A program made the position numbers and the translations under genes. The notes under the pieces are model-generated. The model was not told the DNA's origin. It saw only the letters and a program-made list of their open reading frames with translations, and did not search any database. From Dictyostelium discoideum (taxonomy: Eukaryota), in the NCBI GenBank assembly GCA_000004695.1, contig CM000155.2, positions 1,376,001 to 1,440,000 on the forward strand: a stretch of 64,000 bases of DNA, read 5' to 3'. Shown here in pieces: positions 23,162 through 52,527 of this stretch (position 1 is the first letter of the stretch; each line of letters starts with the position of its first letter).

Positions 23162-25335
<2,174 letters not shown>

Positions 25336-43289: not shown

Positions 43290-43343
<54 letters not shown>

Positions 43344-43709
43344 AATAGTAATAATAATACAACTAATAATATAAATAATTAGTATTTAATAATATTATAA
43401 AGCAAAATAATTTGTTATTGTAGTAGTAAAGGTAACAATAGTTTTATGTCAATTTTATTTTCTTTTATTTATTTTTTTTTTTTTCTTTTTGATTACACCT
43501 CCATATTTATACATACAGATTAATATGTCAACCTCACAAATTAATTGGTATTTTTTTTTTTTTTTTTTTTTATGTATTTTTCTTTTTCTTTTTTTTTTTT
43601 CTCTCTCTTTTTTAACTGCGTACATAAATTTGTTTGTGTGGTGTGTTTAAAAAAAAAAAAGAGGAGAAAAAAATCATGTGCTTTTTAATGTGTGTGTGTT
43701 AGTGTGTTG

Positions 43710-43759
<50 letters not shown>

Positions 43760-49495: not shown

Positions 49496-50020
49496 ATTTT
49501 TTTTTTTTTTTTTTTTTTTTTTGTTGGTACAAATCCAATCAAGATTGTTTTTTTTTTTTTTGTGGGTCGACTATAAAAAATAATAAAAATAATAATAAAA
49601 ACGTTTGAAAAAAAAGTATTACTCCTTATTATTTTATTTATTTAATTATTTAATTATTTATTTTTGGAAAATTTTAAAAGGGGTTATAATTTATAATCCG
49701 AAAAACAATGGATTATTGCTATTTTTTATTTGATTTTTTTACACTATCTTATTTTTTATGTTTTTTTTTATTATTATTATTTTTTATTTTTAAATTAACG
49801 GATAATTAAACAATTAATTTATTTTATTATTAGCTTTTTTAAAGGAATTTTTTTTTTTTTTTTTTTTTTTCTAATAATCCATCAATCTAAAAGTCACACA
49901 AATACCTTTAACAACCAACAAACAACACTATTTAAATATCAACAAAATTTTGAATTTTTTTGAATTTTTTTTTTTTTTTTATTTTTTTATTTTTTTTTTT
50001 TTATTTTTTTATTTTTTTTG

Positions 50021-50051
<31 letters not shown>

Positions 50052-50071
50052 TTTTGAATATTTTAATAATA

Positions 50072-50113
<42 letters not shown>

Positions 50114-50159
50114 ATAGTTTGTAAAGGCACTAATCTGAAGAAAACATATTGATATCATC

Positions 50160-51213
50160 ATGGCTACTTCAATTTCATCATGGTAAGAATTATTAATAAT
50201 AATTTTAAAACGAAAATAATTCCGTCTATTTTAGAAATAAAGATAAAAATATCACATATTTTTATTTTTAATTTTTTATTTTTTTTATTTTTTTTAATTT
50301 TTTTTATTTTTATTTTAATTATTTTAATTATTTTTTTTCTACTTTGCATTAATAATCATAAACACCGTCATTAAATCAACCAAAGCAATAATAATAATAA
50401 AAACAAAAAAAATAAAAAAATAAAAAAACAAATAATATTTTTTTTATTTTTTTATTTTAAAAAAAAAATTGCGCCACACACTAATTTTTTCATTTAAAAT
50501 TTTTAAATTTCCAAATTTGTCCTTAGCGATATAACATTAAAAATACTATTTGTAGGTGATCCATCAGTAGGTAAATCGTCATTAATATGGAGAATGAGTG
50601 TAAGTATATTTTACAGATTTTTTTTATTTTATTTGATTACTTAAAAAATATTAATATTTGTTTTCGTTTTTTTTTTTCCTTTCCTTTCCTTTTTTTTTTT
50701 TATTTTTTTTTTAGGAAAATATATTTCCAACAGTTGAACAAGCGAATTTAACTTTGGCAAACTCGGTGGTAATTATAATTTATTATTATTTAAAATTTAT
50801 TTTATTATAATTTAATACTCACTCAATGCATTAATTTTCATGTGAATATCAAATGATAATTACTTCTCCTTCTTTATCCTTCATAAATCAATTAATTAAT
50901 TAATCAATTAATCAATTTCAATCCACCAACCAACCAACTATATATCAATTAATCTGTATCAAATAATAATTAACTCTCCTTTTTTACATTCCAAACCAAA
51001 AATTAATCAATCAATCAATACCTCATCATTTTTTAATTTTCTACTTTTGCCATTTTTTTTTTATAATCCAATAATTATAGAAATCAAGAGCAATTCAATT
51101 TGGGAAAAAGCAGATATTAGTAAAATTTGTAAGATTTCAATTGATTTAGTTTATTATTTATTTACTTTTTTTATAACAGAAATTTAACCAATAATCTCTT
51201 ATCAAACAACAAC

Positions 51214-51309
<96 letters not shown>

Positions 51310-51565
51310 TATATAGTTTGACACAGCAGGCCAAGAAAGATTTAGAACCATTTCAAAATCATTTTATTCAAACACAGATATAATTATTCTTACATATGAC
51401 CAAAACAATCAATCAACATTTGATCATCTTGTTCAATGGCACACCGAAATTCAAAGATATTGTTCTAAAAATACTTTTATAGCATTAGCAAGTACAAAGA
51501 GGGATTTACCTCCTGTAGTTGACCCATCATTAGCTCAAGTAAGAAAAACAGTTTTATTTTATATA

Positions 51566-51638
<73 letters not shown>

Positions 51639-51984
51639 TTTAATGATTACTAATATTGATTTCTATTTTTAGAATTTTGCAAATGAAAAGGGAATTTTAT
51701 TTATGGAAACAAGTTCTTCAACAAATGAAGGTATTGAAGATTTATTACAAACTGTTATAAAGAGTGCTGGTGAAAAGTAAGTTTTAATTATTTTGTCATT
51801 TTCATTTTTTTTTTTTTCTTAACTTTAGGACTAATTAACTTTTTTTTTTTTTTTATTTTTTAGATTATATACAGAGGAAAATTGGATTAGATTTAAGTTA
51901 AGAGGTGAACAAAATACACGTCAAACAAGGGGAAGCTCACAAGGAACAGAACCAAGAAAAACTGGTTTCTGTCAAATTCTATAA
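50160..51984 (+). CDS. Atypical Ras-superfamily (Rab-like) small GTPase with C-terminal CAAX box CQIL (211 aa); 7 exons: 50160-50182, 50527-50599, 50715-50768, 51081-51119, 51317-51538, 51673-51776, 51864-51984
   Basis: Spliced product MATSISSCDITLKILFVGDPSVGKSSLIWRMS-ENIFPTVEQANLTLANSV-KSRAIQFGKKQIL-FDTAGQERFRTISKSFYSNTDIIILTYDQNNQSTFDHLVQWHTEIQRYCSKNTFIALASTKRDLPP..-NFANEKGILFMETSSSTNEGIED..-..GFCQIL. It has G1 GDPSVGKSS, G3 DTAGQE, variant G4 TKRD, G5 ETSS. Donors GTAAGA, GTAAGT, GTAATT, GTAAAA, GTAAGA, GTAAGT; phases 2, 0, 0, 0, 0, 2. Confidence 0.7.
51214..51309. repeat. (AAT)n, about 32 units, in intron 4 of the CAAX GTPase gene, immediately upstream of exon 5
   Basis: Read directly; ends 7 nt before the acceptor ATATAG at 51316. 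Confidence 0.95.
51570..51646. repeat. (ATT)n, about 26 units, in intron 5 of the same gene, about 30 nt downstream of exon 5; reverse complement of the upstream (AAT)n
   Basis: Read directly. On the same strand, (AAT)n and (ATT)n are mutually complementary and could pair over more than 75 nt. Confidence 0.95.
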
Positions 51985-52527
51985 TGTATTTTCTAGCGAG
52001 ATTATTTAAATTTTAAAAAGAAGAAAAAGAACCAAAAAAAAAAAAAAAAAAAAAAAAAAAACAAGAAAATAGAAAAAAAAAAAACAAGAAAATTTAAAAA
52101 TCAAGATAATAATAATAATAATAACCTATCAAACCAAAAAACCAATTATCAAGGCTACATATCACAACAAATAGTACTGTATAAATTGTTCTTTAATTAC
52201 AAAACAACCAAGTTTTCAAAAAAAAAAAAAGAAAAAAAAACCAAGAAAAAAAAAATTTCAAGAAAAAAAAAAACCAAAAAAAAAAAAAAAACTTTATTAC
52301 CTCATATATTATCTTTTTTAAATAAAAAAATGTAAGATTAGAAAAAAAAAAAAAAAACATAGTTATGAATTAAAATGATCCTTTTTTTTTTTTAAATTTT
52401 TAAACAATATTGGTCAACAACGTAAATTTTTTTAATAATAAATCTTATATTTTTTTTTTTTTTTTTTTTTTGGTTTAAATTTTTTAAAATCTTTTTTTAA
52501 TTTTTTATTAATCAATAAATTATCTTC

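Follow-up and report, generated by a model that had tools for sequence, protein, structure and literature searches.

Can two complementary microsatellites in neighbouring short introns turn a gene towards the production of circular RNA, or do they sit beside a circle that has another cause? The question is raised by rsmM (DDB_G0292300; 50160..51985, + strand), a seven-exon gene in a stretch of 64,000 nt of Dictyostelium discoideum DNA, called the window here, whose positions are used throughout. The gene bears on an unsettled matter, the origin of circles in organisms whose introns measure about 150 nt and which have few repeats derived from transposons. By the prevailing view, such organisms have few flanking inverted repeats and use another route, the lariat precursor (PMC4479058). 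The original prediction, made from the DNA letters, was that exon 5 of this gene is bracketed by (AAT)32 and (ATT)26 tracts whose perfect duplex of about 75 bp would loop out the exon, with exon skipping, a circular RNA or, in DNA, cruciforms and deletions as possible outcomes. The reading favoured here, at a probability of roughly 0.45, is that the duplex would slow forward splicing and divert the exon 5 donor to back-splicing.

The gene was assigned to rsmM because published primers and a published Sanger read for that gene map to the window. The window has a G+C content of 23%. The exon model comprises exon 1 (50160-50182), exon 2 (50527-50599), exon 3 (50715-50768), exon 4 (51081..51128, 48 nt), exon 5 (51317..51538, 222 nt), exon 6 (51673-51776) and exon 7 (51864-51985), all on the + strand, with GT...AG introns throughout. 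Its translation, 214 aa ending in CQIL, is 100% identical to the D. discoideum protein EAL61274.2 / Q54DF4, described as 'small GTPase [D. discoideum AX4]'. The protein matches Pfam Ras with E = 5.8e-37 (127 bits), and GDPSVGKS, DTAGQE, STKRD, ETSS and CQIL are all found in it, as in a CAAX GTPase of the Ras superfamily; its closest named relatives are Rab18-like, at 31-36% identity. The original prediction of a CAAX GTPase gene was thus borne out by the CQIL end, the Pfam match and the protein identity. Its description of exon 5 also agrees with the exon model: 222 nt or 74 codons, phase 0 on both sides, coding from FDTAGQERF (G3) to the G4-like ASTKRD, with atatag before the exon and gtaaga after it. 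Loss of exon 5 would keep the reading frame, as had been predicted, and so would loss of exons 4 and 5 together (270 nt).

Three introns matter for what follows, all on the + strand. Intron 3 (50769..51080, 312 nt) starts with GTAATT, the sole donor in rsmM that is not GTAAG, and this donor is kept across the discoideum group. Intron 4 (51129..51316, 188 nt) carries the AAT tract, and intron 5 (51539..51672, 134 nt) starts with GTAAGA. As RNA, GUAAUU is the weakest donor of the gene and the GUAAGA of exon 5 is strong. CTAAT occurs in introns 1, 5 and 6, at 20-43 nt from the 3' splice sites; in intron 5, it belongs to a branch-site-like motif, TTACTAAT, at 51647-51654, about 20 nt upstream of the 3' splice site. 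Intron 4 lacks both a T-rich pyrimidine tract and a CTAAT-type branch motif, and its sole branch-site-like sequences are the UAAUAAU repeats, a unit that is one mismatch away from the UACUAAU of intron 5.

The upstream tract was found exactly as predicted, a perfect (AAT)32 at 51214..51309 on the + strand (TRF: 51214-51313, 33.3 copies), ending 7 nt before the 3' splice site of intron 4. The downstream tract at 51570..51638 (+ strand) has a perfect run of 23 ATT units, not 26; it is part of a 71-nt tract from 51568 and of a looser TRF array at 51554-51642 (30 copies, 91%). It begins 31 nt past the intron 5 donor and lies before the branch-like motif. The two tracts are 258 nt apart. They can indeed pair perfectly as AAU:AUU, over about 70 bp rather than the 75 bp proposed, and all pairs are A·U.

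The predicted pairing is strong. RNAduplex gave -79.9 kcal/mol for intron 4 with intron 5, and all other pairs of rsmM introns gave -6.7 to -24.3 kcal/mol, including -14.1 kcal/mol, a background level, for intron 3 with intron 5. Intron 4, exon 5 and intron 5 folded together as naked RNA have a minimum free energy of -118.5 kcal/mol, against -63.8 +/- 4.6 for shuffled sequences (z = -11.9), and the fold shows an unbroken AAU:AUU helix. In a context of 1095 nt from intron 3 to intron 6, the probability that the AUU and AAU tracts pair, summed over registers, was 0.99 (37 C) or 1.00 (22 C); the region of the intron 4 3' splice site had a pairing probability of 0.79-0.86 and that of the exon 5 donor one of 0.73-0.80. 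These folding values describe naked RNA at equilibrium.

The pair was also compared with the rest of the window. A size-matched scan, in which segments of 188 and 134 nt lying 222 nt apart were paired (mean -27.9, sd 10.7), placed it among the two strongest of 655 positions, and a second pair of equal predicted strength was found at about 43.3-43.8 kb. RNAduplex on flanks of 400 x 400 nt was discarded as a measure, its background being already -72 +/- 22 kcal/mol. The 64-kb window holds 41 AAT/ATT tracts of at least 5 units and 7 of at least 20 units. When the 7 long tracts were placed at random, at least one opposite pair within 600 nt arose in 19% of trials. Perfect inverted matches of at least 30 nt with a spacer of at most 600 nt number six in the window, the rsmM pair being the longest. 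The rsmM pair is thus real and strong, yet not rare for the D. discoideum genome. By rough extrapolation, such pairs may number on the order of a hundred or more genome-wide, and about 0.2-1 perfect opposite pairs of at least 60 nt would be expected per 64 kb.

A circular RNA from this gene has been published. Wang et al. (2014; PLoS One 9:e90859, PMC3946582) obtained three putative circles from a shallow RNase R RNA-seq library and verified all three by qRT-PCR and Sanger sequencing; the circle from rsmM, one of only three D. discoideum genes with a validated circle, was RNase R-resistant. The Sanger read in their Text S1 joins ...TTAGCTCAA to AAATCAAGAG... at the back-splice (PMC3946582). 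We found that this 245-nt read matches the window at 245 of 245 positions, running through exon 5 (51482-51538), exon 4 (51081-51128) and again exon 5 (51317-51456). The back-splice connects canonical sites, from the end of exon 5 at 51538 (donor 51538/51539) to the start of exon 4 at 51081 (acceptor 51080/51081). The rsmM circle is therefore made of exons 4 and 5, 270 nt in all, from which intron 4, together with its AAT tract, has been spliced. An artefact of reverse-transcriptase template switching at the repeats was considered and rejected, the junction lying exactly at canonical splice sites and containing no repeat sequence.

This product bears directly on the geometry of the tracts. Liang and Wilusz are said to have shown in 2014 that intronic complements of 30-40 nt suffice for circularisation in animal cells, and the match of about 70 bp in rsmM is longer than that. 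As to position, the ATT arm lies where a flanking arm should, in the downstream flank of the circle, but the AAT arm lies downstream of the back-splice acceptor, which is 133 nt upstream of the tract. The true upstream flank of the circle is intron 3. Because the AAT tract sits inside the circularised segment, the tracts are not classical flanking arms. The original prediction of a circular RNA locus was right in that a circle exists; exon 5 is joined in it to exon 4, not to itself, and the tracts flank exon 5 without flanking the circularised exons 4 and 5.

The tracts could instead act as predicted, by looping out exon 5 and so causing regulated skipping (an exon 4-6 mRNA), a circle of exon 5 alone, or both. 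In favour of this, the loop would contain both splice sites of exon 5, at distances of 7 and 31 nt from the stem, the stem itself would draw the exon 4 donor (86 nt off) near to the exon 6 acceptor (34 nt off), and exon 5 is frame-neutral. The divergent primers of Wang et al. (2014), GCATTAGCAAGTACAAAGAGGGAT and CTTTGAATTTCGGTGTGCCATTGAAC (PMC3946582), lie both within exon 5, and a circle of exon 5 alone would have been amplified with them, at 197 bp. Their primer table gives just this size, 197 bp, for the '(5-4)' circle and 130 bp for the linear '(5-7)' product, values that leave out exon 4 and exon 6, respectively. We take this as a bookkeeping slip; a minor 5-5 species could nonetheless be present. 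The amplicon that was directly sequenced is the 245-nt 5-4 circle and not a shorter 5-5 product.

Several further findings speak against the looping-out of exon 5 as a regulated event. A skipped protein would have no G3-G4 segment and would be a dead GTPase. A contig derived from RNA-seq (SRR24091724) carries the full-length coding sequence, free of introns, and the exact proteins expected from skipping exon 5, exons 4 and 5, or exon 6 were absent from a collection of about 15 billion sequences, which is weak negative evidence. Full-length, intron-free coding sequences were also present in three metatranscriptome contigs from a relative. Conservation that would hint at regulation is absent as well. 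Exon skipping is low in amoebozoans (PMC6142364). Exon-skipped linear products are, however, often unstable (PMC4479058), and a rare or unstable skipped RNA may exist in rsmM. Taken together, skipping of exon 5 or a circle of exon 5 alone is an unlikely role for the duplex, and the claim of regulated skipping is not upheld.

To compare strains and species, perfect repeat units were counted at the orthologous loci for ATT in intron 3, AAT in intron 4 and ATT in intron 5, where "none" stands for no run of at least 4 units. The window and the identical assembly GCA_054883475 have none, 32 and 23 units, respectively. Two further D. discoideum assemblies have short AAT arms, GCA_054859385 with 4, 7 and 45 units and GCA_054859355 with 4, 6 and 28. 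Long AAT arms are present in two assemblies of D. cf. discoideum, GCA_054859205 (none, 5+29 and 33) and GCA_054859235 (19, 3+32 and 59). Two assemblies of D. citrinum have 4 ATT units in intron 3, at most 3 AAT units in intron 4, and 96 and 53 ATT units in intron 5; D. firmibasis has 4, none and 50. No run was found in any of the three introns of D. dimigraforme, D. purpureum and P. violaceum, nor in introns 3 and 4 of T. lacteum, in which intron 5 is absent.

The predicted pairing follows these lengths. Among the three long-arm alleles, intron 4 with intron 5 gives -79.9, -105.1 and -112.8 kcal/mol; in the two D. discoideum assemblies with a short arm, the energy is -21.9 and -18.6 kcal/mol, and other species range from -6.5 to -11.1 kcal/mol. 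A natural allelic series is thus available, with AAT arms of 6-7 against 29-32 units and ATT arms of 23-96 units. By coding-sequence distance, the short-arm pair is close to the long-arm D. cf. discoideum assembly GCA_054859205, and therefore the AAT arm has contracted, or has expanded more than once. The ATT arm, common to D. firmibasis and D. citrinum, is on this distribution the older of the two. Copy number varies among isolates and the tracts are absent in outgroups, as is expected of neutral polymorphic microsatellites. Judged from these assemblies, the repeats behave as microsatellites and not as a conserved structure. A conserved regulatory RNA structure was also considered and rejected, since pairing of intron 4 with intron 5 is not retained across species and Rfam gave no match; a scan of 49500-52500 returned a chance-level hit alone (E = 0.74, below the gathering score).

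The original prediction called for a check of the repeats in orthologues. In D. citrinum, D. firmibasis, D. dimigraforme, D. purpureum, P. violaceum and T. lacteum, the repeats are missing or lack a partner. The original prediction was to be given up if RNA-seq gave linear junctions alone and close relatives had no paired repeats; half of this was found, namely the loss of the repeats or of their pairing in relatives, with a short AAT arm even in two D. discoideum assemblies.

The same assemblies bear on the proposal that the inverted tracts act in DNA, by extruding a cruciform or by provoking the deletion or inversion of exon 5. Cruciform extrusion is hard with long spacers such as 258 bp, and the symmetry of the sequence is all that speaks for it here. 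Exon 5 is intact, 222 nt long and unflipped in every Dictyostelium assembly measured, among them those whose arms reach 32 and 59 units, and recombination between inverted repeats inverts a segment and does not delete it. A cruciform or a deletion at the DNA level was accordingly rejected on the spacer length and the intact exon, and a DNA-level role is hardly credible.

How, then, could tracts that fail to flank the circle promote it? In the favoured reading, the reference-type allele carries two microsatellites that have expanded independently, are polymorphic in length and lie in neighbouring short introns, both long and opposite in orientation. In its pre-mRNA, a duplex of about 70 bp, all A·U, would loop out exon 5. 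The duplex would bury the 3' end of intron 4 and make the exon 5 acceptor unavailable. Its 69 nt between the donor and the branch site of intron 5 would form a rigid rod, and exon 5-6 splicing would be delayed. The idle exon 5 donor (GUAAGA) could then be taken over by the exon 4 acceptor, which is the next free one upstream and would be poorly served by the weak exon 3 donor (GUAAUU). Removal of intron 4, before or after back-splicing, would leave the circle of exons 4 and 5. The arrangement would have arisen incidentally, as microsatellites expanded in the discoideum lineage, and not as a conserved regulatory device.

Slower canonical splicing reportedly shifts output to circular RNA, as Liang and co-workers are said to have found in 2017 in Molecular Cell. 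A delay caused by the duplex would agree with this general finding. No other pair of rsmM introns interacts nearly as strongly as intron 4 with intron 5, which speaks for the same reading. So does the allele of the strain that yielded the circle. Three SNPs in exon 5 distinguish the window from the short-arm assemblies; this strain has the window-type base at each of them, and it therefore very probably carried the long-arm allele.

Other observations count against a delay caused by the duplex. The canonical geometry of the arms predicts a circle of exon 5 alone, not the product that was sequenced. The pairing is not conserved, and inverted AAT/ATT pairs are common in the genome, for which reason the argument from coincidence is only moderately strong. 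An all-A·U duplex over a loop of 258 nt may never form in vivo, should co-transcriptional splicing remove intron 4 before intron 5 has been transcribed. Circles in S. pombe arise in the absence of flanking complementarity, via an exon-containing lariat (PMC4479058). Among the other circle loci of D. discoideum, DDB_G0285245, for which the sequence came from a different isolate, has (ATT)5 alone and no AAT/ATT pair; for cxdA, no candidate was found when fragments of its published amplicon were translated and used as queries. A scan of metagenome contigs with a degenerate pattern gave 0 matches to the back-splice junction and is uninformative.

In the main competing explanation, the tracts are neutral microsatellites that leave RNA processing unaffected, and the circle has another cause. 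This explanation is nearly as likely as a delay of splicing by the duplex. Two such causes can be named. An exon-containing lariat could be released when exon 3 is spliced to exon 6 and then be spliced internally, a route proven in S. pombe for a gene with no flanking structure (PMC4479058); the skipping of exons 4 and 5 (270 nt) that it entails is frame-neutral in rsmM. Direct back-splicing could also occur, aided by the weak GUAAUU donor and by the length of intron 3 (312 nt). The position of the arms off the flanks of the circle, with introns 3 and 5 pairing at background level, agrees with either cause, as do the AAT arm of 6-7 units in two D. discoideum assemblies, the arm of at most 3 units, mostly none, in the six other species named above, and the absence of such a pair at the DDB_G0285245 circle locus. 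AAT/ATT tracts are dense enough for opposite pairs to arise by chance (p = 0.19 per 64 kb), and the equally strong second pair at about 43.3-43.8 kb points the same way. On the other side, this explanation needs an event with a chance of roughly 1-5%, as estimated from the tract density of the window, namely that its longest inverted match should lie beside the donor of one of three validated circles. Moreover, some effect would be expected of a duplex that is predicted at a probability of 0.99, overlies the region of a 3' splice site and separates a donor from its branch site.

Known systems resemble rsmM in part. The 5-4 circle of Wang et al. is the same locus, its primers and read mapping to exons 5-4-5 (PMC3946582). 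That paper emphasises the shortness of the introns and does not mention intronic repeats, a text search giving general discussion and mouse Sry alone, and a literature search found Dictyostelium rsmM named in no further paper. The rsmM circle is thus already known; the complementary microsatellite pair, its off-flank position and the allelic series appear to be undescribed.

The repeat-driven circles of mouse Sry, human Alu pairs and Drosophila laccase2 have, like rsmM, a long complementary match between two introns beside a back-spliced exon. The arms of rsmM are pure trinucleotide microsatellites rather than transposon copies, the upstream one is placed past the back-splice acceptor, inside the circularised segment, and pairing encloses the second exon of the circle only. 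The lariat-precursor circle of S. pombe mrps16 (Barrett et al., 2015; PMC4479058) shares with rsmM its short introns and, at the true flanks of the circle, the lack of notable complementarity; the skipped linear product would be frame-neutral in rsmM. Unlike mrps16, which has none, rsmM has a very strong structure between introns 4 and 5 beside the donor.

Exons looped out in hairpins have a longer history. Solnick in 1985 and Eperon and co-workers in 1988 reportedly found that an exon placed in the loop of a hairpin is skipped, and large loops, above about 50-100 nt, are said to have been ineffective in vivo in these studies. Exon 5 of rsmM is likewise enclosed by a long intronic stem, but its loop is 258 nt. 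The tracts also resemble the ordinary AAT/ATT microsatellites of D. discoideum in being perfect arrays, in differing in length between isolates and in being absent from outgroups; what sets them apart is their opposite orientation in two successive introns of a circle-producing gene.

What the locus means for the biology of these organisms depends on whether pairing has an effect. With an effect, polymorphism in repeat length would be a new heritable source of variation in circular-RNA production, and the pairing model would be extended by the off-flank geometry. Without one, rsmM is a warning that striking complementarity beside a circle may be a coincidence in a repeat-rich genome. A wider proposal, speculative and rather improbable at present, is that AAT/ATT pairs, or pairs of A-runs and T-runs, are a general and fast-evolving cause of back-splicing in AT-rich protists with very short introns by stalling forward splicing, with rsmM as the first example. 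If this were true, circle output would be a strain-variable trait set by repeat length.

The text S1 primer table of Wang et al. (Wang et al., 2014) gives 197 bp for the rsmM circle amplicon '(5-4)' and 130 bp for the linear amplicon '(5-7)'. Calculated from the window sequence, the 5-4 circle amplicon is 245 bp, in agreement with the Sanger read of the same study (window 51431-51936 compared), and the tabulated 197 bp is this size minus exon 4. Likewise, 130 bp is the size of the linear 5-7 amplicon minus exon 6, with inclusion of exon 6 bringing it to 234 bp. An rsmM circle made of exon 5 only is expected to yield a 197 bp amplicon, the same as the tabulated '(5-4)' size. In the 270-nt circle of exons 4 and 5 (window 51081-51128 plus 51317-51538), the GTPase frame is endlessly open, with 90 codons, no stops and no AUG, and the remaining two frames contain 6-7 stops.

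The donor of rsmM intron 3 (window 50769-50776) is GTAATT, while the other five of the six rsmM donors are GTAAG. This GTAATT donor is kept in all nine discoideum-group alleles compared, and may explain the availability of the exon 4 acceptor to back-splicing. Intron 3 itself (window 50769-51080) carries AATC/AATT/CAATTAAT-type repeats, which, in a comparison with loci L001, L002, L014 and L017 retrieved from other assemblies, were found to be expanded in other isolates, where the intron is 371-402 nt long. In L017, from a 'cf. discoideum' isolate, the 5' end of intron 3 holds (ATT)19, and because of this tract introns 3 and 4 have a predicted duplex of -74.5 kcal/mol, which would compete with the pairing of introns 4 and 5.

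Synteny upstream of rsmM is conserved (L001-L003, L004 and L006). In both D. discoideum and D. purpureum, the gene is preceded by a 207-aa Rab-type GTPase gene and a minus-strand gene with a HIT/DcpS_C domain, and in T. lacteum a Ras-family gene likewise lies directly upstream of the rsmM orthologue.

At DDB_G0285245, another circular-RNA locus of D. discoideum (examined in isolate GCA_054859355), the circularised exon is exon 2, of 276 nt. It is preceded by an intron of ~1.5 kb, which is unusually large for Dictyostelium and terminates in a 21-nt A run, and it is followed by several T runs. The annotation of this assembly continues through the exon 2 donor.

Within the window, a second inverted AAT/ATT pair is formed by (AAT)10 plus (AAT)8 at 43291-43347 and (ATT)15 at 43713-43759, with arms separated by 365-391 nt. 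In the size-matched scan of segment pairs, its predicted duplex of -78.5 kcal/mol equals the rsmM pair in strength. The pair encloses a possible ATG first exon at ~43526-43548 (ATGTCAACCTCACAAATTAATTG, followed by GTATTT). A minus-strand gene at 23400-25100 also has long tracts, (ATT)n on the plus strand at 23524-23640 and 24853-25005, which appear to code for poly-Asn. A tract of opposite orientation at 24223-24258 falls within an apparent intron of the same gene, so that microsatellite complementarity between exon and intron within one pre-mRNA apparently also occurs.
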